A stretch of DNA of 51,843 nucleotides, from the IMG/VR virus record IMGVR_UViG_2851949629_000002. One strand, 5' to 3'. A model generated the notes under the pieces. The model did not search any database and was not told the origin of the DNA. It worked only from the letters and a program-made list of their open reading frames with translations. Source of the stretch: a virus (taxonomy: Duplodnaviria > Heunggongvirae > Uroviricota > Caudoviricetes). Below are positions 1-51,843 of this stretch, piece by piece (the stretch's first letter is position 1; the number at the start of each line of letters is the position of its first letter). The translations under genes were made by a program, and so were the position numbers.

Positions 1-585
1 ATCATCCACCCAACTTAACTGAAACCAGGATGAAGTATATGCATATAAAGTTCACTTTGCCAAACTTCAGTATAAAAAACCACATAAAAAATAGGGTGTG
101 ATAAAAAAATACTGTAACAATAAAGCAAAGGATTATAAATTCCGTTACAGTTACAAATGATACTCAAGAAACAATTCCTTAGGAAAAACTTATTTACAGC
201 CAATAAGTAAGACACTTATATGATATTAAGTTTTCATAAAACATAACTAGGCTAAATAGCTGCGCCTAATACCGCTACACTTTTGCCAGCCCATGTTTGC
301 CTCCGGGTATTGACCCCTTCTCTACGCAACTTCAGTTCCCACCACCAACTTTGCGGCAGCTTTGTAGGATCAATGTCTAAAAGAATAATGGTGACCGATA
401 AGAAAACGACTGAATAACTGCAAATTTTCGCTCAAAACCTTCCTGTTAGATCCATAGCGAATCAAGTGCTGAATGTCACAGTATCGAACAGAAAACAGTG
501 ACGATCTAACCCTTCAAGAATATTCTACGATTGTTCTGTTTAGGAAAAGCAAGGCGGGAAGTCGGGAGATAAGTCATTGATAAAG

Positions 586-646
586 TGGCGGAGAGAGGGG
601 GATTTGAACCCCCGGTAGAGTTGCCCCTACTCCGGTTTTCGAGACC
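586..646 (-). other. Partial tRNA-Ser(CGA) 3' fragment (~61 nt, anticodon arm to CCA end); probable integration-site duplicate, not a functional tRNA
   Basis: Reverse complement reads GGTCTCGAAAACCGGAGTAGGGGCAACTCTACCGGGGGTTCAAATCCCCCTCTCTCCGCCA, matching the 3' part of serU-type tRNA-Ser as I recall it; acceptor 5' strand and D-arm are absent. Confidence 0.55.
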
Positions 647-1142
647 GATGATACAGAGTCGAAAAATCAAAGAGTTAAAAATTTTTCTTGGAATAAATGT
701 CTTAAAATCGTACACGAAAAATCAATGAATTACATAACATTAAAGAAGAATATTCCAAGCCTTCTTGAGGCTACCACCTGTTTTCAGGTGTCATTCAGAC
801 GTGATTTGCCCCAGATTGGGAAAGCACGCTTTTTTCTCAGCTATCGTCCTCTTATTTTGCCGTTACATTTCTTTTTGCACTCTAATGATTAATTTACAAT
901 AATAATATCGGTAATTATTGAGCAATAATAAATTGATTATTGCAAATGTAATTTAATTCCATCTTCGCGTTATATTCCAATCTTTAATCTCCGCATGGAA
1001 CAAGTTGCATGCGTGACTATATTAAGACAACTTATAACCACCAAAACATTTGCTTTGCAAGCAAAAACAGTGTCCATTGACTCTAAGAAAATTCCGATCT
1101 ATTGTTAGGGTCATCAAAGTTACTTAACAGTATTCCGAAATG

Positions 1143-1232
1143 AAAATACAAAGCAAGCTAATTGTTTTATTAAACATTATCATTGCATTTATATTATTTG
1201 AGCTTTTAGCTCAAAAATTTGGTTTGAGTACA
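1143..1232 (+). CDS. Hypothetical small hydrophobic peptide (29 aa, MKIQSKLIVLLNIIIAFILFELLAQKFGLSTLF)
   Basis: ATG-initiated ORF below the 60-aa cutoff of the ORF track, single predicted transmembrane helix, in AT-rich non-lambda DNA; no homology evidence. Confidence 0.15.
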
Positions 1233-1390
1233 TTATTTTAAAGCAAGATAAACAATATCGGGCACTCTAGTTTTTATAATTAACAATTAAACGCCCATAA
1301 AATGTTATTTACTTTTCTTCGCTATTGTCACATCTTAATATAGTGGCTTACGCCACTCTACTTTCATCATATTTTGTACGTTTATGTACT

Positions 1391-1422
1391 CGCCATGAAG
1401 CTCTTTCATGGCGATTTTTTAT
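1391..1422 (+). terminator. Rho-independent terminator-like hairpin (CGCCATGAA/TTCATGGCG) plus T-run
   Basis: 9-bp inverted repeat with 5-nt loop followed by TTTTTTATT. Confidence 0.4.
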
Positions 1423-1506
1423 TCTTAATCCAAGAACATACTCTCTACCTATAGCAAAATCACTTTTTGAGCAAAAGAATAACGTATTTAGGTAATCATT
1501 ACGAAT

Positions 1507-2088
1507 TTACCCTATAGGTGCTACTGGCCATTCAATATCCGGTGCAGTTGTTGTATTAACACGGTTCAGCAACACCCGATACTTCTTCCATGCTTCCAGC
1601 AACGAGATTTCTTCCTCCGTTGCGATTTCCAGATCTACAGCATCCTGAAGTGGCGCAATATGCTCACTGGCTACCTGCATCAGGCTGTTTTTTGTTTCTT
1701 CCGCCTCCCGGATCCGGAACAGTTTTTCTGCTTCCGTATCCTTCACCCAGGCTGTGCCGTTCCACTTCTGAAACTCCCCTTCCGGCGATAACCAGGTAAC
1801 ATTTTCCGGTAACGGACCGAGTTCAGAAATAAATAACGCGTCCCCTGACGCTACGTCATAAACCGTTTTACCCCGATGGTCTTCAACGAGATGCCACGAT
1901 GCCTCATCACTGTTGAAAACAGCCACAAAGCCAGCCGGAATATCTGGCGGTGCAATATCGGTACTGTTTGCTGGCAGACCTGTATGAGGCGGAATATATG
2001 CGTCACCTTCACCAATAAATTCATTAGTTCCGGCCAGCAGATTATAAATTTTTATGGTCCGTGGTTGTTCACTCATTCTGAATGCCAT
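1507..2088 (-). CDS. tfa: Tail fibre assembly protein Tfa (lambda-like)
   Basis: 193-aa ORF beginning [24 protein letters not shown], near-identical to lambda Tfa as recalled; overlaps stf stop. Confidence 0.9.
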
Positions 2089-5000
2089 TATGCAAGCCTC
2101 ACAATATAGTTAAATGCGATGTTTTTGACGGTGTTTTCCGCGTTACCCGCAGCGTTAACGGTGATGGTGTGTCCATGTGAGCCAATCGCAACGGAGTGCG
2201 TATGAGCACCAATACCGACAGTATGTGCATGTGCGCCTGCGCTTGCAGCAGTGCCGGACAGCGAGTGGGTATGAGCACCATCTGATGATGTCTTTCCTGC
2301 ATTACGAGTCTGGCCACTACCGCTTGTTGTGCTCATAATCCCCGCGCTTGGATTTGAAATCGCGGTATAACCATTAGGGAAAATGCTCGTGTTCGTGCCA
2401 CCAAATGCACCGGAACTCTTGTGTTGGTGCGCACCGGCACTATTTGCGGTCCCGCTAATACTATGGGTATGCGCCCCGGTGTTATTCGTGGATTTGGTTC
2501 CGTAATCAAACGACGATGTGGTTTTCGTCCCCAAATCCGTACTGGATGCGCTGGCGCTGTGGGTGTGCGATTTAATGCCGTCCTGTTCCTGAGACAATAC
2601 GGCGCGACCACTGGCAGGTTTGCCCTTAATCGTCCAGCCACGCATATCAGGGATCACGCCTGACGGATAAGCGGCTGCAAGTTTCGGGTATGCAGATTTG
2701 TCAAAAGTCTGCCCCTGCATCAGGGCATAACCAGGCGGAACGGTATCTGATGGCCACGGGATTGGTGCGCCGACTGGGTAGCTTTCTGGTGGAAGATTTT
2801 TCGAGGTATAAACTTCTGCCCAGTCTTCCTCAAAACCATAGCCATCTCTTGAGGAACGGTAGAACAGACCTCCATTTCTGTAATGTGCCTTCATCTGCAG
2901 GGTCCGGCAACTTCCGACTCCGGTATAGAAGTTAACCAGAATATAGCTGTCGCCAGAGCGGGTGACATTGTAAGCGCCTGATTCGGCATTCCATGGAACG
3001 CCCCCATCCGCATCGGCATATGTATCCGTTGCCCTTCTGGCAAAAGCAGCCACATGCGCGGCGGTTAAAGTAATATCTTTGGAACCATCAAACTCAACAC
3101 CAGAAACCAGTCTTGGCGTTTGCAGCTTTGTTGCTGTTAATGCATTACCATTCAGACTTGCGGACAGTTTGGTTCCAATAATCAGTTCGCCGGTTGCGTT
3201 ATCAATAGCAAACGGTCTTAATGTATTCCAGCCACCATAAACATCACCTTGATTGGTAAGCAGCAGGTAAGTTTTAGCGCCATCATTACGCCATAATGCA
3301 CCATACTCCCCACCTATCATTCGAATCTGATTACCACCACGCGCTACAATTTCGTCTGTGGCAAAAAGTTTTTTGCACGACAAGTTATCGTTAACGATTA
3401 ACGAATGAGACTCATAAAAACCACGCCCACTCTTAAAATCAAGGATAACGTCCGCCGCGATACATTCAGTCGCCGGATTTGTTGCCCCAAACTTATAGGT
3501 CGTATCATTAACAACGAGATCAGCACCAGGTGCGGATATTGACAGGCCATCTTCGATAAACGCAAAAACAGGGAAAGCAGCGCCATCAACATAGAACACA
3601 GAGCGCAAATCATCGCCCTTATTACTCATCATTATTGAGTGGATGGCTCGTTCATTGTTTTGATATTGCCAGAACATTCCATAAGCATAACGCCCCCTGT
3701 CAGTCCAGCCACCAGGCATAACAAATCCGTTAAACTCGCAGTTATTCATCGGATCGCCTGCGGTTCGCGTTGCCGTGGTGATAATGACCCTTGATGCCAG
3801 TTCGCTTACTGAGCCAGCAGAACGCATAACAACAACAGGGTAATATTTTCCAGATGTTGCACCTGCAGGAGCGTTAACCCGCACATAACGCATACCACGC
3901 TTATCAGCAAAGTCTGTTTTACTGACCGCGTTAATGTTGTTCAGGAAGCGTCCCTTATCGGGTATATCAGCGCCGTTCTGGTCTTTCTGCAGACGTTTCT
4001 CTGCATTGTCATAGGCTGATTTTACTGCCTTTGGCGTTGCCGCCAGCGTTTCAGACGTACTGTTGGTCGCACTGCTGAGCTGTACTACCCCCTTTTTCGT
4101 CGTGCTCGCATCCTCAAGCGCCACGGCGGATGCAATATCCTCTGCACGTTTTGCCGCTGTCTCAGCGCGCGTTGCTGCGGATTCTGCCGTACTTTTGCTC
4201 TGTGCTGCCGCTGCCGCACTGCCAGCAGCCTCTGTCGCCTTCGTGGATGCCGTCGTGGCGCTGCCCCTCGCTGCTGACGCCTGTCTGGTCGCCTCATCTT
4301 TTGAAGCAGACGCAGATGATGCCGATGACGCCGCCGAACTGGCGGACGATGCGGCAGCCGTTTTTGAGGATTCTGCGCTGGTTTCCGACGCTTTCGCGTT
4401 CGTTTCGGATGTCTTCGCTGCGGAAGCAGCCCTCGCTGCTGCAGTGGCCTGTTCAGTGGCTTCGCCAGCCTTCGTTGTGGCTGTTGAAGCGGATGATGCG
4501 GCGCTTTCTGCCGATTTTCCGGCGGCGGTGGCACTGGCTGAGGCCTGCCCGGCACTTGTTGACGCGGCACTGGCAGACGACGCAGCCGCTGTTTTTGAGC
4601 CTGCCGCAGCTGAGGCGCTCTGTCCCGCTGCCGTCTCAGAAGACCTGGCGTTCGTCTCGGACGTTTTTGCCGCCTTCGCGGAATTTGCTGCCGCCGTTGC
4701 CGAGGAAGCTGCGCTACTGGCGCTCGAGGATGCGTTCGTTTCTGATGATTTTGCCGCCTCTTTTGAAGCCGACGCATCCCGGGCTGAGATGGCAGCTTCT
4801 GACGCTTTCGTAGTCGCGGTGGATGCAGAAGTGGCTGCTGATTGTTGTGACGCTGCAGCATTCGTTTCAGACGTTTTCGCGGCACTGGCACTGGTAGCTG
4901 CCGCGCTTTTTGAGGACTCTGCAGCGGCAGCACTTTTTTCCGCTTCAGTGGCCTTTGTTGATGCCGTTCCTGCGCTGGAAGACGCTGACTGAGCCGACGA

Positions 5001-5495
5001 AGCGGCCTGTCCGGCTGACGTGCTGGCTGCGCGTGCTGAGCCTGCAGCATCAGTCGCATGGGTTGCCGCCTCACGGGCAGATGTGCCGGCATCGCCGGCT
5101 GACTTCTTCGCGGCTGCCGTGTTCTGTGCCACCGCGGACGCGTTACGCGCCACCTCTTCCAACATCAGTTCAAAACGGCGCAGAGCCTCCGGACGGGCAT
5201 CCTCCTCCGTCATGGCACCGAGAAAATCATTCAGCGTACCGGGTCGGGAATCTTCATACACGGTGATGGTCCCGGCATGTGACGGCGGGAACCCTTCCAC
5301 CAACAGAATAACGCTGTACTGACCGTACTCAACGTCCATGCTGTAACGCCCGGCTTCATCCGGATTTTCTGAGGCCAGCGTGTTCACCACCACCGTGGTG
5401 CTGTTACGTTTTGCTTTCAGCTGGATTGTGCAGTTCTGTACCGGTTTTCCTGTGCCGTCTTTCAGTACACCTGAAATCTTTACTGCCATATTCAC
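2088..5495 (-). CDS. stf: Side tail fibre protein Stf, mosaic (lambda-like N- and C-terminal parts, different central domain)
   Basis: 1135-aa ORF; N-terminal ~400 aa incl. Ala/Ser-rich repeats and C-terminal GAHxHS repeats match lambda Stf as recalled; central ~500 aa do not. Confidence 0.85.
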
Positions 5496-20449: not shown

Positions 20450-24130
<3,681 letters not shown>

Positions 24131-24156
<26 letters not shown>

Positions 24157-24676
24157 TCAGCAACCCCGGTATCAGTTCATCCAGCGCGGCTGCTTTGTTC
24201 ATGGCTTTGATGATATCCCGTTTCAGGAAATCAACATGTCGGTTTTCCAGTTCCGGAAAACGCCGCTGCACCGACAGGGGGATCCCGTCGAGAATACTGG
24301 CAATTTCACCTGCGATCCGCGACAACACGAAAGTACAGAATGCGGTTTCCACCACTTCAGCGGAGTCTCTGGCATTCTTCAGTTCCTGTGCGTCGGCCTG
24401 CGCACGCGTAAGTCGATGGCGTTCGTACTCAATAGTCCCTGGCTGGAGATCTGCCTCGCTGGCCTGCCGCAGTTCTTCAACCTCCCGGCGCAGCTTTTCG
24501 TTCTCAATTTCAGCATCCCTTTCGGCATACCATTTTATGACGGCGGCAGAGTCATAAAGCACCTCATTACCCTTGCCACCGCCTCGCAGAACGGGCATTC
24601 CCTGTTCCTGCCAGTTCTGAATGGTACGGATACTCGCACCGAAAATGTCAGCCAGCTGCTTTTTGTTGACTTCCAT
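24131..24676 (-). CDS. Nu1: Terminase small subunit Nu1
   Basis: MEVNKKQLADIFGASIRTIQNWQEQGMPVLRGGGKGNEVLYDSAAVIKWY..., lambda Nu1 as recalled. Confidence 0.9.
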
Positions 24677-24910
24677 TGTTCATTCCACGGACAAAAACAG
24701 AGAAAGGAAACGACAGAGGCCAAAAAGCTCGCTTTCAGCACCTGTCGCTTCCTTTCTTTTCAGAGGGTATTTTAAATAAAAACATTAAGTTATGACGAAG
24801 AAGAACGGAAACGCCTTAAACCGGAAAATTTTCATAAATAGCGAAAACCCGCGAGGTCGCCGCCCCGTAACCTGTCGGATCGCCGGAAAGGACCCGCAAA
24901 ATGATAATAA
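24677..24910. other. cos: cos site (cosN 12-nt cohesive end at ~24854-24865; cosB toward Nu1, cosQ on the other side)
   Basis: AGGTCGCCGCCC is the reverse complement of lambda cosN GGGCGGCGACCT; flanks match both lambda genome ends as recalled. Confidence 0.85.
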
Positions 24911-25064
24911 TTATCATCTACATGTCACAACGTGCATCTACGCCATCAAACCACGTCAAATAATCAATTATGACGCAGGTATCGTATTAATTGATCTGCA
25001 TCAACTTAACGTAAAAACAACTTCAGACAATACAAATCAGCGACACTGAATACGGGACAACCTC

Positions 25065-25298
25065 ATGTCAACGAAGAACAGAACCCGCAGAACAACAACC
25101 CGCAACATCCGCTTTCCTAACCCAATGATTGAACAAATTAACATCGCTCTTGATCAAAAAGGGTCTGGGAATTTCTCAGCCTGGGTCATTGAAGCCTGCC
25201 GCCGAAGACTGTGCTCAGAAAAAAGAGTTTCGCCTGAAGCAAACAAAGAAAAGAGTGACATTACTGAATTGCTCAGAAAGCAGGTCAGACCAGATTGA
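25065..25298 (+). CDS. Ribbon-helix-helix (Arc/Mnt-like) DNA-binding protein, hypothetical
   Basis: 77-aa ORF; basic N-terminus then RFPNPMIEQINIALDQKG...SAWVIEACRRRL resembling an RHH fold. Confidence 0.5.
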   Translation: MSTKNRTRRTTTRNIRFPNPMIEQINIALDQKGSGNFSAWVIEACRRRLCSEKRVSPEANKEKSDITELLRKQVRPD

Positions 25299-25340
25299 AG
25301 CAATTTAGATAATCGTGCAGACTAGGTACCCTCATATCAC

Positions 25341-25766
25341 ATGGAAGGTACTACAATGGCTCAGGTTGCCATTTTTAAACAAATATTCGATAAAGTGCGA
25401 AATAATTTAAACTATCACTGGTTTTATTCTGAACTAAAACGTCACAATGTCTCACATTACATTTACTATTTAGCCACAGAGAATATTCATCTTGTTCTTG
25501 AAAACGATAATACGGTTTTAATAAAAGGACAGGGTAAGGTTGTAAATGTAAGATTTTCAAAAAATAAATGCCTTATAGAAGCCACATTAAAAGGATTCAA
25601 ATCAGGAGAGTTATCATTTTACGAATACAGGAAAAATCTTGCTACAGCAGGAGTTTTCAGATGGATTACAAATATCCACGAAAACAAAAGGTATTACTAT
25701 ACCTTTGATAATTCATTACTCTTTACTGAGAACATTCAGAACACTACACAAATATTTCCGCACTAA
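25341..25766 (+). CDS. Hypothetical phage protein (possibly DUF1398/YbcV-like)
   Basis: 141-aa ORF directly downstream of the RHH gene; family assignment from memory is weak. Confidence 0.45.
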
Positions 25767-26444
25767 ATCATAACGTCCGGTTTCTTCCGTGCCAGAACCG
25801 GACTCGCTGGCATGATGAAATATGTGTACCCGGTAACCCCGGTGTGCATCGTTTTTGATTATTCCCGCACACTCGCGCAGAAGGAGTTCCCCGTCGGGCT
25901 ACGGTCTCTGTTAATACGGGAATACGGCGACGATACAGCGCATGATGTGTCAGGCTTGAATACCTTTATCCTTTAAAAGGGATATCAGTTAAGTTATCCC
26001 GTGTAGGGTATAAGCCATTATCAAAGCCACTCTGTAGGGAATGGCTTTTGTGATGGCATCACTTACTCTTTACGCTGCTATCCCACTCATCCCGGAATTT
26101 TGATGGGTTATTGAAACCTTCTGCTGACATAACAACTCCTTCAATGTTTGGCTGAAATTAGGATGTCTTTCCATCAGTCCGCCACCACAAAGAATCTTTT
26201 TTGCCATAAGGCAGGAGGTTCATCTTTCAGTGGCTGCCGGTGTTATTTCCCCACTTACTGGCTTGGGTTGTTTCGTGGTACTGCCGTTAACTGGTGGCGC
26301 ACAGATTTAGTTAAATCCGTTCTCGCCTGAACTATCTTTTACATACCCGGATTGTGGGGATGTAAATCACGGTTTCATTATCAAGCCCACCAGTAGATGG
26401 GCTTTGTAATGAAGAGTTGTTATGAAAATTGCTCTAAACAAGCA

Positions 26445-26969
26445 TTAATAGCCATCAGAAGTAATCGCTACAGATTTCAATCCCTCAATGTCATCCTTGG
26501 ACAGGGCGAACCATTCACCGTGCTTTCTCTTTGCGGCAAATTTGCGATGAAGCATGTTTTCAGTTTCTCTTCCACCAGGGATCAGGCACTCAAGCTTCAA
26601 GCAGTCTGGTCCAGAGTTGCCAAGCGATTTGATGCGTTGTGGAATGTTGGATGAATACCCAATTTTGGTTAGCCCAGTTTTCTTCGATGACAAAACGTAT
26701 ACCTGAGGAGGTTCTTTTCTCTGGTCTTCCATTACACGTCTCATTGTTGCCATAAGTCCGCCGTGCATCAGCATTTCAACAAAGAACGCTGACCGAACAC
26801 CTGACGACTTAAGCATGCCAGAAAATTCACTTGCCAATTCCATTAACTCTGCGATGTTTTCAGGAACTTTTTGGCAGTTATCTTCCTTGTATAAGGAAAT
26901 CATTCTTTGAAGCTTTTCTTCTAATTGGTTCATAGCGTCTTTACCTTTTAGAAAGTGAGCCTGTCTCAC
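26445..26969 (-). CDS. T5orf172 (GIY-YIG-like) domain protein, moron
   Basis: 174-aa ORF; C-terminal VYVLSSKKTGLTKIGYSSNIPQRIKSLG...ENMLHRKFAAKRKHGEWFAL fits the T5orf172/MUG113 motif pattern as I recall it; sits where lambda carries bor. Confidence 0.55.
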   Translation of the reverse strand: MRQAHFLKGKDAMNQLEEKLQRMISLYKEDNCQKVPENIAELMELASEFSGMLKSSGVRSAFFVEMLMHGGLMATMRRVMEDQRKEPPQVYVLSSKKTGLTKIGYSSNIPQRIKSLGNSGPDCLKLECLIPGGRETENMLHRKFAAKRKHGEWFALSKDDIEGLKSVAITSDGY

Positions 26970-27082
26970 AGAAAAGCCGCCCCGAGATGGTCGCCACCAT
27001 ATACGGCAGTTCTCAGGCTCAACTTTCTGAAAGGCTCGGGTGATGTAATATGCGCGTGAGATGCGCTGTGAAATTCAGATGT

Positions 27083-27108
27083 AAAAAAAGCCCCGCATCG
27101 CGAGGCTC
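27083..27108 (-). terminator. Rho-independent terminator after Rz (end of lysis cassette)
   Basis: Minus strand AGCCTCGCG-loop-CGGGGCT hairpin followed by TTTTTTT, ~30 nt past the Rz stop. Confidence 0.55.
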
Positions 27109-34336: not shown

Positions 34337-34366
34337 GTAAGCGTCAACGGAGCACCGTATTGACGC

Positions 34367-35720
34367 TTATTTATTAGTGAGTACTACGTTCCATGGCAGG
34401 AGTTCGTCAACTCGGTTGGAAGGCCATTCCGGCAGTACGCTCAGGATATGGCGCAGATACGCTTCCGGATCGATACCATTCAACCGGCAGGTGCCGATCA
34501 GCCCGTACAACAGTGCACCACGCTCGCCGCCGTGATCGCTACCGAAGAACACGTAATTTTTCTTTCCGAGACAGACTGCACGAAGCGCTCTTTCCGCTGT
34601 GTTATTGTCCGCCTCCGCCAGACCGTCATCACAGAAGTTGCACAACGCAACCCAGTGCTTCCTGATATACCGGAACGCATCTCTCAGACGGCATTTTTTC
34701 GATAACGTGTGTTCTTTCTCCTGCATCAGCTTATACAGGGAAGTCAGTAGCGGTTTACTCTGCATTTGCCTGACCGCCAGGCGTTCAGACACCGGCAACC
34801 CGCGTATTTCGTGCTCAATGGCGTACAGTTCACTGATTCGCTTCAGGGCTTCTTCTGCCGTCGCACTTTTGCTGCTGATGTATACATCGTGGATTTTTCG
34901 CCGGGCATGGGCCCAGCACGCAACTTCTGTCAGTGCACCACCTTCACGTTCTGCACTGAACAACCTGTCGTAACCTGTGAACGCATCTGCCTGCAGGATA
35001 CCCCGGAAGGGACGAAGGTGTTGCTCCGGATGTTTACCCTGATGGTCCGGTGAGTAGGCGAACCAGACCGCCGGAGGTTCTGGCGAACCGGCATTTCGGT
35101 CATCCCGGACATACGTCCAGATATATCCTGTTTTCGCCTTCTTCCTGCCCGGTGCCAGTACTTTTACTGGTGTGTCATCAGTGTGAACCTTGCGGGTGTT
35201 CATCACATAACTGTACAGGGCATCATTCAGCGGAGTCATTAACTGGCAGCACGCATCAACCCAGTTGGAGAGTAAGGCACGGCTCAGTTCGACACCCTGG
35301 CGGGCAAAGATTTCACTCTGACGATACAGTGGCAGGTGTTCGCAGTATTTTCCCGTTAACACGCGGGCAAGTAACCCCGGGCCCGCGATACCACGCTCTA
35401 TCGGACGGGATGGTGCCGGTGCTTCAACGATGCAGTCACATTTTGTACAGGCTTTTTTTACCCGTTCTGTGCGGATCACTTTCAGGGCGCTGCTCACCAG
35501 CTCCAGTTGTTCTGCGCTGACTTCCCCCAGATAATCCAGCTCACCGCCACACTCCGGGCAACAGCTTTCTTCTGGCTCCAGGCGGTATATTTCACGGGGG
35601 AGATGTGCCGGTAACGGACGACAATGGCGCGACTGTCGCAACTGGCGGGGAACCAGCGGGTCATCCTCACGCCCACTGTAACGATCGCTTTCCTGCTCGC
35701 GTTGTTTCAGCAGGACTTCA
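34367..35720 (-). pseudogene. Outer IS66 transposase TnpC, C-terminal ~440 codons, separated from its N-terminus by the inner IS
   Basis: ORF continues ...LLKQREQESDRYSG upstream to the inner-IS junction; ~90% similar to the intact inner TnpC. Confidence 0.8.
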
Positions 35721-35813
35721 GCCTGTTCGTAAGCGTAAACTGACCGCCGTATGTAGCCATCAGACGAGAATTGGTAACTTAGACGCCCATCTGATATAGA
35801 CGGACATCTAAGT

Positions 35814-36239
35814 ATGGAATTACAGGACTGGCGAAAAGAACCTCGTAAAAACTATTCGAATGAATTCAAACTTCGTATGGTGGAACTGGCATCACAACCT
35901 GGAGCTTGTGTTGCACAGATTGCACGTGAAAATGGCGTCAATGATAATGTTATTTTCAAATGGCTCAGGCTCTGGCAGAACGAAGGGCGTGTTTCGCGGC
36001 GTCTTCCGGTAACGACCTCTTCTGACACTGGCGTTGAATTATTACCTGTAGAAATAACGCCGGATGAGCAGAAAGAACCTGTGGCGGCCATTGCGCCGTC
36101 TTTATCCACTTCCACTCAGACCAGAGTCAGTGCCAGTTCCTGCAAGGTGGAATTCCGTCACGGTAACATGACGCTGGAAAATCCATCGCCAGAGCTGCTC
36201 ACAGTGTTGATCCGTGAACTGACCGGGAGGGGAAGATGA
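35814..36239 (+). CDS. IS66 accessory protein OrfA (TnpA)
   Basis: 141-aa ORF, first gene of the IS66 three-gene arrangement. Confidence 0.8.
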   Translation: MELQDWRKEPRKNYSNEFKLRMVELASQPGACVAQIARENGVNDNVIFKWLRLWQNEGRVSRRLPVTTSSDTGVELLPVEITPDEQKEPVAAIAPSLSTSTQTRVSASSCKVEFRHGNMTLENPSPELLTVLIRELTGRGR

Positions 36240-36586
36240 TCTCACTCCCATCAGGTACCCGTATCTGGCTCGTTGCCGGCGTTACCGATATGCGTAAATC
36301 CTTCAACGGACTGGGAGAACAGGTACAACATGTGCTGAATGATAATCCCTTCTCCGGTCACCTGTTTATCTTCCGTGGCCGACGGGGTGACACCGTCAAA
36401 ATTCTTTGGGCTGATGCTGATGGTCTGTGCCTGTTCACCAAACGCCTGGAGGAAGGCCAGTTTATCTGGCCTGCGGTACGTGACGGCAAGGTATCCATTA
36501 CCCGCTCGCAACTGGCAATGCTCCTCGATAAGCTGGACTGGCGTCAGCCAAAAACATCCAGCCGTAACTCACTGACAATGTTGTAA
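36236..36586 (+). CDS. IS66 accessory protein OrfB (TnpB)
   Basis: 116-aa ORF MISLPSGTRIWLVAGVTDMRKSFNGLGEQ... overlapping orfA stop. Confidence 0.85.
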   Translation: MISLPSGTRIWLVAGVTDMRKSFNGLGEQVQHVLNDNPFSGHLFIFRGRRGDTVKILWADADGLCLFTKRLEEGQFIWPAVRDGKVSITRSQLAMLLDKLDWRQPKTSSRNSLTML

Positions 36587-36616
36587 AAAACTCCTGACCG
36601 CATTATAAAAACGGTC

Positions 36617-38230
36617 ATGAGTCAGAAATACCTCATTCGCATCGCAGAGCTGGAAAGGTTGCTCTCTGAGCAGGCTGAAGCCCTCCGTCAGAAAGACCAG
36701 CAACTGAGTCTGGTTGAAGAGACGGAAGCCTTCCTGCGCTCTGCACTGACACGTGCCGAAGAAAAGATCGAAGAAGATGAACGGGAAATAGAACATCTGC
36801 GGGCTCAGATAGAAAAACTGCGCCGGATGCTGTTCGGTACCCGTTCTGAAAAACTGCGTCGTGAAGTTGAACTGGCTGAGGCTCTGCTGAAACAACGTGA
36901 ACAGGACAGCGATCGTTACAGTGGGCGGGAAGACGATCCTCAGGTTCCCCGCCAGTTGCGACAGTCGCGCCATCGTCGTCCGTTACCGGCACACCTTCCC
37001 CGTGAAATACACCGCCTGGAGCCAGAAGAAAGCTGTTGCCCGGAGTGTGGCGGTGAGCTGGATTATCTGGGGGAAGTCAGCGCTGAACAGCTGGAACTGG
37101 TGAGCAGTGCCCTGAAAGTGATCCGCACAGAACGGGTAAAAAAAGCCTGTACAAAATGTGACTGTATTGTTGAAGCACCGGCGCCGTCCCGCCCGATAGA
37201 GCGTGGTATCGCGGGCCCCGGATTACTTGCCCGCGTGTTAACGGGAAAATACTGCGAACATCTGCCACTGTATCGTCAGAGTGAAATCTTTGCCCGCCAG
37301 GGTGTCGAACTGAGCCGGGCCTTACTCTCCAACTGGGTTGACGCGTGCTGCCAGTTAATGACACCGGTGAATGATGCCCTGTACCGTTATGTAATGAACA
37401 CCCGCAAGGTTCACACTGATGACACACCGGTAAAGGTACTGGCACCGGGTCAGAAAAAGGCGAAAACAGGGCGTATCTGGACGTATGTCCGGGATGATCG
37501 CAATGTGGGTTCGTCATCTCCTCCAGCGGTCTGGTTCGCGTACTCGCCGAACCGGCAGGGGAAACACCCGGAGCAACACCTCCGCCCCTTCCGGGGTATC
37601 CTGCAGGCGGATGCGTTCACAGGTTACGACAGGTTGTTCAGTGCAGAACGTGAAGGTGGTGCACTGACAGAAGTTGCGTGCTGGGCCCATGCCCGGCGAA
37701 AAATCCACGATGTATACATCAGCAGCAAAAGTGCGACGGCAGAAGAAGCCCTGAAGCGAATCAGTGAACTGTACGCCATCGAGGATGAAATACGGGGATT
37801 ACCGGAGTCAGAGCGTCTTGCCGTCAGGCAGCAGCGAAGCAAAGTGTTACTGACGTCGCTGCATGAATGGATGGTGGAGAAGAATGGTACGCTGTCGAAA
37901 AAATCCAGACTGGGCGAAGCGTTCAGCTATGTACTGAATCAGTGGGATGCCCTCTGTTATTACAGTGATGACGGTCTGGCGGAGGCGGATAATAATGCTG
38001 CGGAAAGAGCGCTTCGTGCAGTCTGTCTCGGAAAGAAAAACTTTATGTTCTTCGGCAGCGATCACGGCGGCGAGCGAGGAGCACTGTTGTACGGGCTGAT
38101 CAGCACCTGCCGACTGAACGGTATCGATCCGGAAGCGTATCTGCGCCATATCCTGAGCGTACTGCCGGAATGGCCTTCCAACCGAGTTGACGAACTCCTG
38201 CCATGGAACGTAGTACTCACCAATAAATAA
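36617..38230 (+). CDS. IS66 transposase TnpC
   Basis: 537-aa ORF with N-terminal coiled-coil, CxxC zinc motifs and DDE-type core. Confidence 0.85.
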   Translation: MSQKYLIRIAELERLLSEQAEALRQKDQQLSLVEETEAFLRSALTRAEEKIEEDEREIEHLRAQIEKLRRMLFGTRSEKLRREVELAEALLKQREQDSDRYSGREDDPQVPRQLRQSRHRRPLPAHLPREIHRLEPEESCCPECGGELDYLGEVSAEQLELVSSALKVIRTERVKKACTKCDCIVEAPAPSRPIERGIAGPGLLARVLTGKYCEHLPLYRQSEIFARQGVELSRALLSNWVDACCQLMTPVNDALYRYVMNTRKVHTDDTPVKVLAPGQKKAKTGRIWTYVRDDRNVGSSSPPAVWFAYSPNRQGKHPEQHLRPFRGILQADAFTGYDRLFSAEREGGALTEVACWAHARRKIHDVYISSKSATAEEALKRISELYAIEDEIRGLPESERLAVRQQRSKVLLTSLHEWMVEKNGTLSKKSRLGEAFSYVLNQWDALCYYSDDGLAEADNNAAERALRAVCLGKKNFMFFGSDHGGERGALLYGLISTCRLNGIDPEAYLRHILSVLPEWPSNRVDELLPWNVVLTNK

Positions 38231-38256
38231 GCGTCAATACGGCACTCCGTTAACGC

Positions 38257-38520
38257 TTACGCCTGTTCAACCTCACTACGCAGTTTTTCAGAACGGGTTC
38301 CGAACAGCATCCGGCGCAGTTTTTCTATCTGAGCCCGCAGATGCTCTATTTCTCGCTCATCTTCTTCGATCTTTTCTTCGGCACGTGCCAGTGCAGAGCG
38401 CAGGAAGGCCTCCGTCTCTTCAACCAGACTCAGTTGCTGGTCTTTCTGACGGAGGGCTTCAGCCTGCTCAGAGAGCAGCCTTTCCAGCTCAGCGATGCGA
38501 ATGAGGTATTTCTGACCCAT
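38257..38520 (-). pseudogene. Outer IS66 TnpC N-terminal fragment (87 codons)
   Basis: MGQKYLIRIAELERLLSEQAEALRQKDQQL... ends at the inner IS junction. Confidence 0.8.
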
Positions 38521-38550
38521 GGCCGTTTTTATAATCCGGCCCGGCGTTTT

Positions 38551-38901
38551 TTACAACATTGTCAGTGCGTTAAGGCGGGATGTTTTTGGCTGACGCCAGT
38601 CCAGCTTATCGAGGAGCATTGCCAGTTGCGAGCGGGTAATGGATATCTTACCGTCATGCACCGCAGGCCAGATAAACTGACCTTCCTCAAGGCGTTTGGT
38701 GAACAGGCACAGACCATCAGCATCAGCCCACAGGATTTTAATCGTGTCTCCCCGTCGGCCACGGAAGATAAACAGGTGACCGGAGAAGGGGTTATCATCC
38801 AGCACATGCTGTATCTGCTCCCCCAGACCGTTGAAGGATTTACGCATATCAGTAACGCCGGCAACGAGCCAGATACGGGTACCTGATGGGAGTGAAATCA
38901 T
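38551..38901 (-). CDS. Outer IS66 OrfB (TnpB)
   Basis: 116-aa ORF ~90% similar to the inner orfB. Confidence 0.8.
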   Translation of the reverse strand: MISLPSGTRIWLVAGVTDMRKSFNGLGEQIQHVLDDNPFSGHLFIFRGRRGDTIKILWADADGLCLFTKRLEEGQFIWPAVHDGKISITRSQLAMLLDKLDWRQPKTSRLNALTML

Positions 38902-39335
38902 CGTCCCCTCCCGGTCAGCTCACGGATCAACACCGTGAGCAGCTCTGGTGAAGGATTTTCCAGCATCATTTTACCGTAATGGAATTCCACATGGCAGGAA
39001 GCTGCACAAGCAACTGATAATGCCTCCGGAGCAGGAGCATCTGTAGCACAGCGCGGGGTGTCGATAAGTTCCACTGGAACCAGAGTCGGAGAGGCCGGAA
39101 AAGATTGTGATACTGTAGGGCCTACAATAGTTGGAGGCATTCTACGAGAAATACGTCCTTCTCTTTGCCAGAGGCGTAGCCATTTAAAAATCAGGTTGTT
39201 ATCAACGCCATGTTCCCGGGCCAGTTGTGCAACATTGGCATTTGGTTTCGAAGCCAGTTCAACCATATGAAGTTTAAATTCATTAGAAAATATCCGGCGG
39301 GTTCCGGAGCGCCAGTCTGTAGGTTTATCCATCAA
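38898..39335 (-). CDS. Outer IS66 OrfA (TnpA)
   Basis: 145-aa ORF, diverged homologue of the inner orfA. Confidence 0.75.
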   Translation of the reverse strand: MMDKPTDWRSGTRRIFSNEFKLHMVELASKPNANVAQLAREHGVDNNLIFKWLRLWQREGRISRRMPPTIVGPTVSQSFPASPTLVPVELIDTPRCATDAPAPEALSVACAASCHVEFHYGKMMLENPSPELLTVLIRELTGRGR

Positions 39336-39415
39336 TAGAACTCCGTCTAATTTAGAAGGAGCTCTAATTTAGTCTGCAAGGAGCAAGTGTTACAGACGGC
39401 ATTGGCTTTACGCTT

Positions 39416-39869
39416 ACGTAATAGTGTCTTTTGTGTCCCCCTGTTTTGAGGGATAGCAATCCCCCAATTTGAGGGATGTTTTATCCCTCGTTTTAGGGGA
39501 TTGTCCCTCGTTTTGAGGGATACACCATTCTGAGATGTTTTTATTTGGTCCAAACATGCCGCCTTGCTGCTTGATAATATTCATTCTGACGAGTTCTAAC
39601 TTGGCTTCATTGCACCGTTTGACAGGTAACTTTGTAATCTCGCTAAGTTGAGAATCGGTGATTCTGTCCATTGGTTTATTCCACCCATAGGTTTTACGCA
39701 GAATGGCAAGCAGCACTTTAAACTGTCGCTTGGTCAGATCTGCGCCCGAATAAGCCTCAAGCAGCATATTTGATAGTCTGGCGTAACCATCATCGAGATC
39801 TGCCACATTACGCTCCTGTCCGGCAAAGTTACCTCTGCCGAAGTTGAGTATTTTTGCTGTATTTGTCAT
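39416..39869 (-). pseudogene. O: Replication initiator O, N-terminal fragment
   Basis: MTNTAKILNFGRGNFAGQERNVADLDDGYARLSNMLLEAYSGADLTKRQF..., lambda O N-terminus; reading frame runs into the IS. Confidence 0.85.
39436..39521. repeat. ori-lambda iterons (four ~18-bp O-binding repeats)
   Basis: Four copies of TCCCTC-N6-GAGGGA-like inverted units inside the O N-terminal coding region. Confidence 0.8.
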
Positions 39870-39901
39870 AATGACTCCTGTTGATAGATCCAGTAATGAC
39901 C

Positions 39902-40195
39902 TCAGAACTCCATCTGGATTTGTTCAGAACGCTCGGTTGCCGCCGGGCGTTTTTTATTGGTGAGAATCGCAGCAACTTGTCGCGCCAATCGAGCCATGTC
40001 GTCGTCAACGACCCCCCATTCAAGAACAGCAAGCAGCATTGAGAACTTGGGAATCCAGTCTCTCTTCCACCTGCTGATCTGCGACTTATCAACTCCCACA
40101 GCTTCCGCTGTCTTCTCAGTTCCAAGCATTGCGATTTTGTTAAGCAACGCACTCTCGATTCGTAGTGCCTCGTTGCGTTTGTTTGCACGAACCAT
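39902..40195 (-). CDS. cII: Transcriptional activator cII
   Basis: MVRANKRNEALRIESALLNKIAMLGTEKTAEAVGVDKSQISRWKRDWIPKF..., lambda cII (track ORF has an upstream extension). Confidence 0.9.
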   Translation of the reverse strand: MVRANKRNEALRIESALLNKIAMLGTEKTAEAVGVDKSQISRWKRDWIPKFSMLLAVLEWGVVDDDMARLARQVAAILTNKKRPAATERSEQIQMEF

Positions 40196-40274
40196 ATGTA
40201 AGTATTTCCTTAGATAACAATTGATTGAATGTATGCAAATAAATGCATACACCATAGGTGTGGTTTAATTGGAT

Positions 40275-40289
40275 GCCCTTTTTCAGGGC
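40275..40289 (-). promoter_or_regulatory. nutR boxB hairpin
   Basis: GCCCTGAAAAAGGGC on the minus strand between cro and cII. Confidence 0.7.
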
Positions 40290-40313
40290 GGGGATGGGTA
40301 AGAGCGGGGTTAT

Positions 40314-40523
<210 letters not shown>

Positions 40524-40540
40524 TTAGTACATGCAACTAT

Positions 40541-40604
40541 TATCACCGCCAGAGGTAAAATAGTCAACACGCACGGTGTTAGATATTTATCCCTTGCGGT
40601 GATA
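40541..40604. promoter_or_regulatory. Right operator OR1-OR2-OR3 with overlapping pR and pRM
   Basis: TATCACCGCCAGAGGTA (40541-40557), CAACACGCACGGTGTTA (40565-40581), TATCCCTTGCGGTGATA (40588-40604). Confidence 0.9.
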
Positions 40605-40611
40605 GATTTAA

Positions 40612-41328
<717 letters not shown>

Positions 41329-41345
41329 TAGGAAGTAAGTTTTAT

Positions 41346-41375
41346 GTTGACGGCACAGTCAACTTGGCATAGATT
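41346..41375 (+). promoter_or_regulatory. Candidate sigma70 promoter with -35 inside a perfect palindrome GTTGAC-N6-GTCAAC
   Basis: TTGACG, 17-nt spacer, TAGATT; palindrome at 41346-41363. Confidence 0.3.
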
Positions 41376-41385
41376 AATTAAACCA

Positions 41386-41446
41386 AGCCCAGCCCCGTTC
41401 GCAGACAATTGTTAATATCTGCATAACGGCTCTGGGCTATTTTTTT
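41386..41446 (+). terminator. Long interrupted hairpin plus T7 run (terminator/attenuator-like leader) ending 9 nt before the NYN-gene ATG
   Basis: AGCCCAGCCCCGTT ... AACGGCTCTGGGCT followed by TTTTTTT. Confidence 0.45.
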
Positions 41447-41455
41447 GGGACTCTT

Positions 41456-42313: not shown

Positions 42314-42322
42314 TCCCATCAA

Positions 42323-42348
42323 CCCGGCCACCGAGCCGGGTTTTCTTT
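42323..42348 (+). terminator. Rho-independent terminator after the NYN gene
   Basis: CCCGGC-CACCGA-GCCGGG hairpin followed by TTTTCTTT. Confidence 0.6.
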
Positions 42349-42503
42349 GCCTCACGATCGCCCCACCTAAAAACACATAACCAATTGTATTTATTTTAAA
42401 ATTAATAGGTGCAACTCACTAAACAACGCAATTCTGATCTCTCGATCACCTCCCAAGCCACACAACCCTGCAAAAAATAAATCTATATAAAAAACATACA
42501 GAT

Positions 42504-42566
42504 AACCATCTGCGGTGATAAATTATCTCTGGCGGTGTTGACACAAATACCACTAGCGGTGATACT
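42504..42566 (+). promoter_or_regulatory. Left operator OL3-OL2-OL1 and promoter pL
   Basis: AACCATCTGCGGTGATA, TATCTCTGGCGGTGTTG, then TTGACA...TACCACTAGCGGTGATACT. Confidence 0.85.
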
Positions 42567-42605
42567 AAACACACCAGCAGGACGCACTAACCCACATGAA
42601 GGTGA

Positions 42606-42636
42606 TGCTCTTAAAAATTAAGCCCTGAAGAAGGGC
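42606..42636 (+). promoter_or_regulatory. nutL (boxA-like then boxB GCCCTGAAGAAGGGC)
   Basis: TGCTCTTAA then GCCCTGAAGAAGGGC hairpin upstream of N. Confidence 0.8.
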
Positions 42637-42794: not shown

Positions 42795-43659
<865 letters not shown>

Positions 43660-43808: not shown

Positions 43809-43828
43809 ATCTATGAGGATATGAATAG

Positions 43829-49158: not shown

Positions 49159-49377
49159 ATGTACTTGACACTTCAGGAGTGGAACGCACGCCAGCGACGC
49201 CCAAGAAGCCTTGAAACAGTTCGTCGATGGGTACGCGAGTGCAGGATATTCCCTCCTCCGGTTAAGGATGGAAGAGAGTATCTGTTCCACGAATCAGCGG
49301 TAAAGGTTGACTTAAATCGACCAGTAACAGGTAGCCTTTTGAAGAGGATCAGAAATGGGAAGAAGGCGAAGTCATGA
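49159..49377 (+). CDS. xis: Excisionase Xis
   Basis: 72-aa MYLTLQEWNARQRRPRSLETVRRWVRECRIFPPPVKDGREYLFHESAVKVDLNRPVTGSLLKRIRNGKKAKS, lambda Xis. Confidence 0.95.
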   Translation: MYLTLQEWNARQRRPRSLETVRRWVRECRIFPPPVKDGREYLFHESAVKVDLNRPVTGSLLKRIRNGKKAKS

Positions 49378-50425
49378 GCGCCGGGATTTACCCCCTAACC
49401 TTTATATAAGAAACAATGGATATTACTGCTACAGGGACCCAAGGACGGGTAAAGAGTTTGGATTAGGCCGAGACAGGCGAATCGCAATCACTGAAGCTAT
49501 ACAGGCCAACATTGAGTTATTTTCAGGACACAAACACAAGCCTCTGACAGCGAGAATCAACAGTGATAATTCCGTTACGTTACATTCATGGCTTGATCGC
49601 TACGAAAAAATCCTGGCCAGCAGAGGAATCAAGCAGAAGACACTCATAAATTACATGAGCAAAATTAAAGCAATAAGGAGGGGTCTGCCTGATGCTCCAC
49701 TTGAAGACATCACCACAAAAGAAATTGCGGCAATGCTCAATGGATACATAGACGAGGGCAAGGCGGCATCAGCCAAGTTAATCAGATCAACACTGAGCGA
49801 TGCATTCCGAGAGGCTATAGCTGAAGGCCATATAACAACAAACCCGGCCGCAGCCACTCGCGCTGCAAAATCAGAGGTAAGGAGATCAAGACTTACGGCT
49901 GACGAATACCTGAAAATTTATCAAGCAGCAGAATCATCACCATGTTGGCTTAGACTTGCAATGGAACTGGCTGTTGTTACCGGGCAGCGAGTTGGTGATT
50001 TATGCGAAATGAAGTGGTCTGATATCGTAGATGGATATCTTTATGTCGAGCAAAGCAAAACAGGCGTAAAAATTGCCATCCCAACAACATTGCATGTTGA
50101 TGCTCTCGGGATATCAATGAAGGAAACACTTGATAAATGCAAAAAGATTCTTGGCGGAGAAACCATAATTGCATCTACTCGTCGTGAACCGCTTTCATCC
50201 GGCACAGTATCAAGGTATTTTATGCGCGCACGAAAAGCATCAGGTCTTTCCTTCGAAGGGGATCCGCCTACCTTTCACGAGTTGCGCAGTTTGTCTGCAA
50301 GACTCTATGAGAAGCAGATAAGCGATAAGTTTGCTCAACATCTTCTCGGGCATAAGTCGGACACCATGGCATCACAGTATCGTGATGACAGAGGCAGGGA
50401 GTGGGACAAAATTGAAATCAAATAA
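49355..50425 (+). CDS. int: Integrase Int (tyrosine recombinase)
   Basis: 356-aa MGRRRSHERRDLPPNLYIRNNGYYCYRDPRTGKEFGLGRDRRIAITEAIQANIELF..., lambda Int. Confidence 0.95.
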   Translation: MGRRRSHERRDLPPNLYIRNNGYYCYRDPRTGKEFGLGRDRRIAITEAIQANIELFSGHKHKPLTARINSDNSVTLHSWLDRYEKILASRGIKQKTLINYMSKIKAIRRGLPDAPLEDITTKEIAAMLNGYIDEGKAASAKLIRSTLSDAFREAIAEGHITTNPAAATRAAKSEVRRSRLTADEYLKIYQAAESSPCWLRLAMELAVVTGQRVGDLCEMKWSDIVDGYLYVEQSKTGVKIAIPTTLHVDALGISMKETLDKCKKILGGETIIASTRREPLSSGTVSRYFMRARKASGLSFEGDPPTFHELRSLSARLYEKQISDKFAQHLLGHKSDTMASQYRDDRGREWDKIEIK

Positions 50426-50535
50426 TGATTTTATTTTGACTGATAGTGACCTGTTCGTTGCAACAAATTGATAAGCAATGCTTTTTTATAATGCCAACTT
50501 AGTATAAAAAAGCAGGCTTCAACGGATTCATTTTT
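50426..50535. other. attL: Prophage attL (P' arm, 15-bp core at 50499-50513, bacterial B arm)
   Basis: Reverse complement contains GCCTGCTTTTTTATACTAAGTTGGCATTATAAAAAAGCATTGCTTATCAATTTGTTGCAACGAACAGGTCACTATCAGTCAAAATAAAATCATTATT, i.e. lambda core GCTTTTTTATACTAA with P' arm. Confidence 0.85.
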
Positions 50536-50559: not shown

Positions 50560-51843
50560 GTGAACACATTTTCAGTTTCCCGTCTGGCGCTGGCATTGGC
50601 TTTTGGCGTGACGCTGACCGCCTGTAGCTCAACCCCGCCCGATCAACGTCCTTCTGATCAAACCGCGCCTGGTACCTCTTCTCGCCCGATTCTGTCGGCA
50701 AAAGAAGCGCAGAATTTCGATGCTCAACACTATTTTGCATCCCTGACACCAGGTGCTGCAGCGTGGAATCCTTCCCCGATTACCCTGCCTGCGCAACCTG
50801 ACTTTGTTGTCGGCCCGGCGGGCACTCAAGGTGTAACGCATACCACGATTCAGGCGGCGGTAGATGCGGCAATTATCAAGCGTACCAACAAGCGCCAGTA
50901 TATTGCCGTGATGCCTGGTGAGTATCAGGGAACGGTATATGTCCCTGCCGCTCCGGGTGGAATTACTCTGTACGGTACAGGTGAAAAACCGATTGATGTG
51001 AAGATTGGGCTTTCCCTTGATGGTGGCATGAGCCCTGCCGACTGGCGTCACGACGTCAACCCGCGCGGCAAATATATGCCAGGTAAACCAGCGTGGTATA
51101 TGTACGATAGCTGCCAGAGCAAACGCAGCGACAGTATCGGTGTTCTCTGCTCTGCGGTCTTCTGGTCACAAAACAATGGCCTGCAACTGCAAAATCTGAC
51201 CATCGAAAACACGCTGGGCGATAGCGTAGATGCAGGTAACCATCCGGCGGTGGCACTGCGTACTGATGGTGACCAGGTACAGATTAACAACGTTAACATT
51301 CTCGGTCGTCAGAACACCTTCTTTGTCACCAACAGCGGTGTGCAGAACCGTCTGGAAACGAATCGTCAGCCGCGTACGCTGGTGACCAACAGCTACATTG
51401 AAGGGGATGTGGATATCGTTTCTGGTCGCGGCGCAGTGGTGTTCGATAACACCGAATTCCGCGTGGTGAACTCACGTACTCAGCAAGAAGCGTATGTGTT
51501 TGCACCGGCTACGCTGTCCAACATTTACTACGGTTTCCTCGCCGTAAACAGCCGTTTCAATGCTTTCGGTGATGGTGTGGCGCAACTGGGCCGCTCGCTG
51601 GATGTTGATGCCAATACCAACGGTCAGGTGGTGATCCGTGATAGCGCCATCAACGAAGGTTTTAACACGGCTAAACCGTGGGCCGATGCGGTGATCTCTA
51701 ATCGTCCGTTTGCGGGTAATACCGGCAGCGTAGATGATAACGACGAAATACAGCGCAATCTGAATGACACTAACTACAACCGCATGTGGGAATACAATAA
51801 CCGCGGCGTGGGTAGTAAAGTGGTTGCAGAGGCGAAGAAGTAA
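50560..51843 (+). CDS. ybhC: Host lipoprotein YbhC (pectinesterase-fold acyl-CoA thioesterase), chromosomal flank of att-lambda
   Basis: 427-aa ORF with lipoprotein signal MNTFSVSRLALALAFGVTLTAC, matches E. coli YbhC as recalled. Confidence 0.9.
   Translation: MNTFSVSRLALALAFGVTLTACSSTPPDQRPSDQTAPGTSSRPILSAKEAQNFDAQHYFASLTPGAAAWNPSPITLPAQPDFVVGPAGTQGVTHTTIQAAVDAAIIKRTNKRQYIAVMPGEYQGTVYVPAAPGGITLYGTGEKPIDVKIGLSLDGGMSPADWRHDVNPRGKYMPGKPAWYMYDSCQSKRSDSIGVLCSAVFWSQNNGLQLQNLTIENTLGDSVDAGNHPAVALRTDGDQVQINNVNILGRQNTFFVTNSGVQNRLETNRQPRTLVTNSYIEGDVDIVSGRGAVVFDNTEFRVVNSRTQQEAYVFAPATLSNIYYGFLAVNSRFNAFGDGVAQLGRSLDVDANTNGQVVIRDSAINEGFNTAKPWADAVISNRPFAGNTGSVDDNDEIQRNLNDTNYNRMWEYNNRGVGSKVVAEAKK

Follow-up and report, generated by a model that had tools for sequence, protein, structure and literature searches.

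The window analysed here is a stretch of 51,843 nucleotides (IMG/VR record IMGVR_UViG_2851949629_000002). It very probably begins about 1.74 kb inside an ordinary lambda-family prophage. The left junction of this prophage would lie outside the window and would not be abnormal (probability about 0.88). The prophage itself is in all likelihood essentially Escherichia phage ev099, and positions 1-1506 would be its distal b region. With a similarly high likelihood, it sits normally at the lambda site, in the interval between ybhC and ybhB. Inside the b region, a short piece of the tRNA gene serU and its chromosomal flank mark what appears to be the attachment site of a different lambdoid phage, preserved as a fossil.

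Ends of the lambda-type prophage

The right end had been described as a lambda-type attL, and it is one. The order lambda Int, P' arm, core and ybhC is seen there. The int gene (49355..50425, plus strand) belongs to an attL block at 49355..50513, which also holds the P' arm and the exact 15-bp core (50499-50513, minus strand). The core abuts ybhC, which occupies 50560..51843. The exact core, GCTTTTTTATACTAA, has a single copy in the window, at this place. Compared with ev099, window 49355-50513 is 99.9% identical, up to the last base of the core. Lambda Int is the only integrase in the window; a cognate integrase or excisionase of the serU type was not found in it. The G+C content of the whole window is 51%.

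Phage ev099 (Radostvirus ev099, NC_049953.1 / LR597635.1) and the window prophage are collinear, with 96.6-99.98% identity over the aligned segments. Window 1-24822 corresponds to ev099 25209-34, and window 39418-50513 corresponds to ev099 38076-26949. On the int side the alignment runs precisely up to the core (window 50513), and on the other side it stops at window position 1. Close to this second limit, window 1-2100 is 99.8% identical to ev099 23111-25209. The only ev099 DNA without a counterpart in the window is 25210-26948 (1,739 bp). It contains the AraC-family gene, transposase remnants and the P arm. The order in ev099 is J, lom, stf, tfa, the equivalent of window 1506 to 1, the AraC-family gene, transposase remnants, the exact attP core, int, xis and exo. 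Two other phage genome records carry the block 1-1506 as well. Phage mEp332 is 98% identical over window 1-2100, and PhiR70_1 is 98% identical over window 1-1649.

Bacterial chromosomes continue in the same manner. By megablast, 96 of 5,426 complete E. coli genomes contain the whole segment 1-1506 with about 99% identity. We compared three complete chromosomes, APEC O78, 181.1 and Eco_24-2013, and read the core sequence in APEC O78. The order in this strain is bioA, ybhB, a lambda-type attR, IS remnants, the AraC-family gene, window 1-1506, tfa, the tail fibre and lom. Its attR has the core ACTTTTTTATACTAA (one mismatch), the B' arm CGTTTCGCTCAAG and, in the P arm, lambda arm-type sequence. 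The same gene order is present in 181.1 and Eco_24-2013, the two best among the complete E. coli genomes closest to the window (about 97% identity over 25 kb).

Contigs with an identical Tfa protein give a closer view. This protein is on at least 23 contigs, and the layout was examined in the eight listed. They present tfa, 1.5 kb of DNA, the AraC-family gene, IS remnants, ybhB, bioA, bioBFCD and uvrB. The lambda core is exact in seven of these contigs and carries one mismatch in the eighth, L027. It lies 1,754 bp to the left of the equivalent of window position 1 in the seven contigs and 1,756 bp in L027. When APEC O78 is added to the eight, the distance ranges over 1,740-1,756 bp, and the B' arm comes next. 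In all the cases examined (3/3 complete chromosomes and 8/8 contigs), ybhB and bioA stand just past the AraC-family gene and the IS remnants. One of these contigs, L025, matches the window over 8.5 kb with 99.95% identity. The exact sequence of the window's tail-fibre protein is not on record.

From the relatives and ev099, we infer a normal attR for the window prophage. The part beyond the window would be its last 1.74 kb, formed by the AraC-family gene, IS3-type remnants, the P arm and the attR core. The unusual look of the left end is best read as an effect of the window edge, with the window cut at gene boundaries. The first-pass annotation had taken the left junction as not of the lambda type. 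It was misread because the window stops short of the junction; both the relatives and ev099 continue from position 1 to a lambda core. The deletion, or tandem or hybrid prophage, that it had proposed is not supported either, as the b-region DNA runs on to attP in ev099 and to attR in the relatives. It was correct that the exact lambda core is missing from 1-1506, where the best match is a 13/15 look-alike at 67-81. As to a core and ybhB immediately to the left of the window, the relatives do carry both on that side; the core is 1.7 kb away and not adjacent.

Content of the distal b region

An AraC-family regulator gene lies to the left of the window, with its start codon immediately beside position 1. 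This gene adjoins the equivalent of position 1 in ev099, mEp332, 181.1, Eco_24-2013, O157:H7 and the eight contigs. It encodes a product of 247 amino acids (contig L001, 11257..12000, minus strand, where window position 1 is L001 12001). The protein has full-length matches to Pfam HTH_AraC and phrog_1450. Its upstream and promoter region occupies 1..250 of the window (minus strand) and is part of the b-region cargo of the phage. A promoter-like TTGGCA-18-TATACT is found there, from 63 to 34 on the minus strand. A second lambda attachment site at 67-81 was considered and rejected. The core-like site extends to 22/25 with two gaps, and its score is slightly above those of 300 shuffles. It lies in the promoter region of the AraC-family gene and is never a homology breakpoint, so we take it as a chance or degenerate match.

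The terminal 56 bp of an IS630-family element follow at 251..306. The tip of the inverted repeat is at 251 and faces left. Annotated IS630-family copies in many genomes have ends that match this segment at 93-98% identity, and the terminal inverted repeat, CTAAATAGCTGCGC, is seen on comparison with a full copy. The element is cut internally at 306/307 and is fused there to the host serU flank. Since the homology of the serU flank ends at 307 and the IS630 element is truncated, 306/307 reads as an illegitimate (non-homologous) joint. The AraC side (1-307) was rejected as a native neighbour of serU; a chimeric query joining it to intact serU matched 0 of 5,426 genomes.

At the other end of the segment, a tail-fibre gene (2088..5495, 1,135 amino acids) precedes the tail fibre assembly gene tfa (1507..2088, minus strand). 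The product of tfa matches Pfam Caudo_TAP (6.5e-43) and phrog_105 (2.9e-99), and the gene is 96% identical to lambda tfa. A match to Rfam IS009 was also observed within tfa. The stretch that follows it had been described as about 840 bp of AT-rich sequence. The AT-richness is right (31.1% G+C), and the length is corrected to 859 bp (648-1506). Two parts can be separated. The P-arm side of a serU-type attachment site occupies 648..842; it is phage DNA beside the crossover point, collinear with the attR of strain CE0032f. The rest, 843..1506, is AT-rich b-region DNA past tfa with 27-30% G+C and is apparently non-coding. Much of it (929-1506) corresponds to a widespread block downstream of tfa, with about 95% identity in many genomes, e.g. 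at ydfJ in strain 38. The small open reading frames of 1-1506 have zero matches to Pfam or PHROG families.

An intrinsic terminator followed by a T run lies in the AT-rich stretch (1390-1414, plus strand). The region 1301-1428 folds with z = -5.5, owing to the hairpin of this terminator. A MicC-like small RNA was tried for the same region and rejected. The Rfam match has 25.5 bits (E 0.58), and pairing of its 5' end with the ompC leader is no better than in shuffled sequences (111/300).

The serU junction and its origin

A 3' fragment of serU, the tRNA-Ser(CGA) gene, is present at 586..647 (minus strand). It extends from the anticodon stem to CCA and is identical to the 3' end of K-12 serU at 62 of 62 positions. 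The terminal A of CCA falls at position 586, and the fragment's other end is in the 5' strand of the anticodon stem; 62 of the 90 nt of the tRNA are present. A serU-type piece of 61 nt had been reported at 586-646. Its identity stands, and its extent is now 62 nt. ARAGORN finds 0 complete tRNAs in the whole window. Likewise, the Rfam tRNA model gives no match at E<=1, and only partial T-arm-like matches to other models appear. Both negatives are expected because the fragment is too short for a whole tRNA. The tRNA-like stretch does fail detection by the covariance model, as the first-pass annotation had considered; nevertheless, its identity as serU holds with the 62/62 match.

Next to the fragment are 279 bp of captured native DNA from downstream of serU, on the yodB/zinT side (307..585, minus strand, from the K-12 alignment). 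In total, 341 bp of host-derived DNA adjoin the 647/648 junction. Window 308-647 aligns to K-12 2043190-2043529 with 97% identity, and the downstream flank of serU is found in about 5,422 of the 5,426 genomes. The identity of the serU fragment, together with its own flank at 97%, is far beyond chance.

The same junction exists in live prophages. Window 308-1649 is collinear with the attR junction of the serU prophage of CE0032f, with 97.2% identity. The order in CE0032f is mtfA, intact serU, int, the prophage body, J, lom, stf, tfa, 860 bp, the 62-nt serU repeat, the 279-bp flank and zinT. At its attL, serU is rebuilt with two compensatory changes in the variable arm, which represent the phage allele. 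The attR repeat has the host allele, as does the fragment in the window. The junction is at the true serU locus in 131 of 5,426 genomes, and it is internalised together with window 1-307 in 96 genomes. In O26 RM8426, this P arm (648-842), with an identical starting nucleotide, forms the end of a prophage next to uspF. The uspF site has only about 12 nt of core (TTTCGAGACCG) in common. The same start of the P arm at this site places the crossover in the anticodon-loop region. By these alignments, 647/648 is shown as a junction of the site-specific integration type, in the anticodon-loop region of serU. Williams is said to have described, in 2002, an anticodon-loop sublocation class of tRNA-gene integration.

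The allele indicates which half of the site was kept. The fragment carries the host allele, unlike the phage-borne allele at the attL of CE0032f. This is the signature of a Campbell-type attR (P-O-B'). Judged by its sequence, the fragment is the core and B' half of a fossil attR, not a phage attP. The window has no cognate integrase and no intact tRNA, so the site reads as a fossil and not as an active end or a present-day chromosomal junction. The earlier view of the tRNA piece as the attachment remnant of a different element thus holds as history, as 308-1649 is 97% identical to a real serU attR. Nothing suggests a present-day function of the fragment in the prophage. We propose none because it comes without a tRNA, a cognate integrase or coding capacity. 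The serU fragment is unannotated in the ev099 record. We found no description of it in the literature on ev099, Radostvirus and mEp332, and no paper describing phage ev099 was found.

The module formed by the AraC-family gene, the IS630 remnant, the flank and a serU remnant is present in more than 400 genomes. These include O157:H7, where it is located at the distal end of a thrW prophage. In the thrW-type modules, the P arm belongs to a second family, which is internally diverged, and the identity to the tRNA covers 66-71 nt. Roughly 644 genomes carry the AraC module. A thrW repeat was sought beside the O157:H7 module, as its thrW attR, and was not found. At true serU loci, the O157-type P arm appeared in none of a 40-row spread sample, from which rare cases could escape. 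The AraC/serU-remnant module adjoins intS/argW in one strain.

We propose that the b-region fossil is the attR of a different, serU-integrating lambdoid phage, represented by the P arm (648-842) and serU (586-647). The 279 bp of native DNA from downstream of serU (307-585) would have come along with it. The block from tfa to this attR, with the host flank, would then have entered the lineage of the lambda-int phage. It may have done so by a capture of the specialised-transduction type, through aberrant excision. A simpler route would be homologous exchange between lambdoid phages, by means of tfa/stf and the 341-bp serU-derived patch. The exchange seems the more economical of the two. The capture route is uncertain, although several features of the specialised-transducing type were found, namely host DNA and a hybrid att in phage records and a non-homologous distal joint. 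A donor locus with the AraC/IS630 side (1-307) beside intact serU is found in 0 of 5,426 E. coli genomes. Because the AraC side is never beside intact serU, a single simple aberrant excision from a present-day type of serU locus does not explain the whole module. We regard the arrangement as ordinary lambdoid mosaicism with an unusually legible footprint, and it reveals no new mechanism.

Other explanations were weighed against this proposal. The junction could have originated in situ, which we consider unlikely. A serU phage would have integrated into a decoy attB within a prophage, i.e. a captured serU remnant of at least 71 nt with its flank and AraC cargo. Later, recombination between the tandem lambdoid prophages would have deleted the intervening DNA, leaving tfa, the P arm, the fragment and the module. 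Modules with longer serU remnants (to the window-equivalent positions 651 and 656) are indeed joined to other sequences in more than 400 genomes, and the AraC side is beside intact serU in no genome. The remnant also keeps the whole anticodon stem-loop, the place of the crossover, and the P arm used the alternative O26 site with about 12 nt of core identity. Nevertheless, the tandem intermediate was not found. The exchange through the 341-bp patch and tfa/stf gives the same product without a secondary integration, and the 97% identity to real attR junctions runs through the flank. A broader idea, and an improbable one, is that the serU remnant and the 279-bp flank act as a portable pseudo-attB and homology patch, repeatedly re-coupling the AraC cargo to unrelated phages. 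The patch would be used by serU-specific integrases or by homologous recombination, with at least two P-arm families. Its partners would be a lambda-type phage (attB-lambda), a contractile-tail pinE phage (thrW) and an intS remnant (argW).

It is very unlikely that selection in the phage keeps the fragment as a second, working attachment site or as a functional RNA derived from a tRNA. Its conservation of 98-99% in 96 genomes and three phage records could point that way, but it does not exceed the conservation of the DNA around it, which is recent and near-identical. Measured against a working attR, both the core and the P arm are intact; on the other hand, the cognate integrase and excisionase are absent, lambda Int stands alone in the window, and no tRNA or Rfam family was detected. 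The reading of the first-pass annotation is extremely unlikely. It held that the lambda attR was lost and that the tail-fibre end was fused to a serU-locus remnant, with the serU locus itself as the left flank. A 3' fragment of serU, accompanied by its genuine chromosomal flank, does lie 860 bp from tfa, and the exact core is absent from 1-1506. However, the serU flank ends after 279 bp at the IS630 remnant. Beyond this remnant, b-region DNA reaches attP in ev099, or attR, ybhB and bioA in all the chromosomes and contigs examined. Finally, reads from the serU locus might have been joined to the prophage during assembly, given the repeats nearby (tfa and IS ends). The probability of such an artefact is practically negligible, as 96 genomes finished independently of one another, eight contigs and three phage records show the identical arrangement.

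Comparison with known systems

For annotation, the result removes a false alarm, and the prophage would have normal lambda-type ends. It also offers a clean, datable footprint, in which the tail-fibre/b-region arm of a lambda-int phage would have come from a serU-integrating relative. This arm would have arrived with a hybrid att and 279 bp of host DNA. It shows how host DNA and AraC cargo may enter lambdoid phages and move between them.

The closest relative, ev099, has the lambda-type int, the attP core, the AraC cargo and the IS remnants that are also in the lineage of the window prophage. The two differ in three respects. The window prophage has a nested IS66-family insertion of 5.08 kb in the replication gene O. 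A 1-kb segment, 26038-27083, is replaced in it. Finally, its long tail-fibre gene is annotated differently.

In STEC, serU is a reported integration site of lambdoid and Stx prophages (PMC8065619, PMC7067040). Prophages integrated there, e.g. that of CE0032f, have in common with the window tfa, the 860-bp AT-rich stretch, the P arm, the 62-nt repeat and the 279-bp flank. In contrast, their attR is live and lies at the real serU; the opposite end carries a serU-type integrase, and zinT follows the flank. The junction in the window is found within a phage that relies on lambda Int and attB-lambda.

The DLP12 end in K-12 (tfaX, appY) is also similar, with a tfa gene, AT-rich non-coding DNA and an AraC-family regulator at the distal end. 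The AraC-family regulator is 29% identical to AppY of DLP12 over the full length. However, DNA homology between DLP12 and the window is confined to tfa. DLP12 is without the serU fragment and integrates at argU.

In the Campbell model, specialised transducing phages such as lambda bio and lambda gal arise by aberrant excision. The arrangement in the window resembles them in having att-adjacent host DNA and a hybrid att (P-O-B') beside the tail end of the map, and one of its boundaries (306/307) is likewise an illegitimate joint. Phage phiAP1.1 is a modern example of a capture of the specialised-transducing type (PMC13492144). The window differs from lambda bio and lambda gal in that only 341 bp of host DNA are kept, and the integrase and att are now different. 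Moreover, the host DNA is joined here to an IS630 remnant and not to int-side phage DNA, in a case known from sequence alone.

The core-like site and the tfa region

The left end of the window presents a degenerate sequence that resembles the lambda core, the 15-bp attachment core. It consists of GGTTTTTTATACTGAAGTTTGGCA, at 67-81 on the minus strand, with 13 of 15 positions identical to the core. The resemblance extends to 58-83. Compared with the core and the start of the P' arm, 22 of 25 positions are matched in this longer stretch, with two 1-nt gaps. The alignment score of the site was 31, against 17.9 ± 2.3 for shuffled sequences (maximum 29). An AraC promoter-like site lies directly downstream of 67-81, and a homology breakpoint was never seen at this core-like site.

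Farther right, a strong intrinsic terminator (1390-1414 plus a T run, plus strand) faces the 3' end of tfa in convergent orientation. It lies within 1301-1428, a stretch with a fold z-score of -5.5. The Rfam match of this stretch to MicC (plus strand) was sub-threshold, with 25.5 bits and an E value of 0.58. Its complementarity to the ompC leader was not above that of shuffles. The stretch may represent a small transcript that has escaped recognition, or may just be the terminator of b-region transcription. Rfam also gives a full-length IS009 match (229 bits) at 1547-1745 on the minus strand, wholly within the tfa coding sequence. Here, this "sRNA" family coincides with protein-coding DNA.

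The AraC/serU-remnant module and the P arm in other chromosomes

The module of the window recurs at thrW-type loci, as in L005/L010/L011 (E. coli O157:H7 MB9-1), L012 (Ceylon31) and L013 (LR-33). In these loci, the module consists of an IS3 remnant, the AraC gene, an IS630 remnant, the 279-bp serU flank and the serU remnant. Its carrier is a contractile-tail prophage that is integrated at thrW and has pinE and GIY-YIG genes, and the module occupies the distal end of this prophage. In this setting, the module adjoins a different, diverged P-arm family, and the tRNA identity reaches 66-71 nt. Beside the module of these prophages, no repeat of thrW was detected.

E. coli 700462 (L004) shows another arrangement. 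The AraC gene, window 1-2100, tfa, stf, lom and J adjoin intS and the tRNA-Arg gene argW, and a transposase fragment is the sole separator between the phage block and intS/argW. Because the b region abuts an integrase in the chromosome, this locus suggests an IS-mediated rearrangement.

The P arm of the window (648-842) also forms a prophage end beside uspF in E. coli O26 RM8426 (L008, 4984-5198). This prophage is lambdoid and carries NleG-like (DUF1076) effector genes. The site at its uspF-side end has only ~12 nt (TTTCGAGACCG) in common with serU. This type of arm has here an alternative, or secondary, site of attachment.

Comparison with phage ev099 and with K-12 serU

Two segments of the window are not shared with the collinear lambdoid phage ev099. 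The first (26038-27083), with the cos-proximal region on one side and the lysis genes on the other, contains an ORF with a T5orf172/MUG113 domain (26445..26969, minus strand). The second, absent from ev099, is a 5.08-kb insertion of nested IS66-family elements (34339-39417). Its genes are tnpA, tnpB and tnpC, with the Pfam domains DDE_Tnp_IS66, TnpB_IS66 and HTH_Tnp_1. It interrupts the phage replication gene O, of which a 151-aa N-terminal ORF remains (39414..39869, minus strand). Both flanks carry ev099 38067-38076, probably as a target duplication. The prophage is probably replication-defective.

In strain CE0032f, prophage integration has rebuilt serU at attL (L014, 34132-34221). Because this gene differs from K-12 serU at two positions, the lysogen is predicted to express a variant tRNA with a phage-supplied 3' half. 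Compared with K-12, both substitutions (A to G, T to C) are compensatory and lie in the long variable arm.
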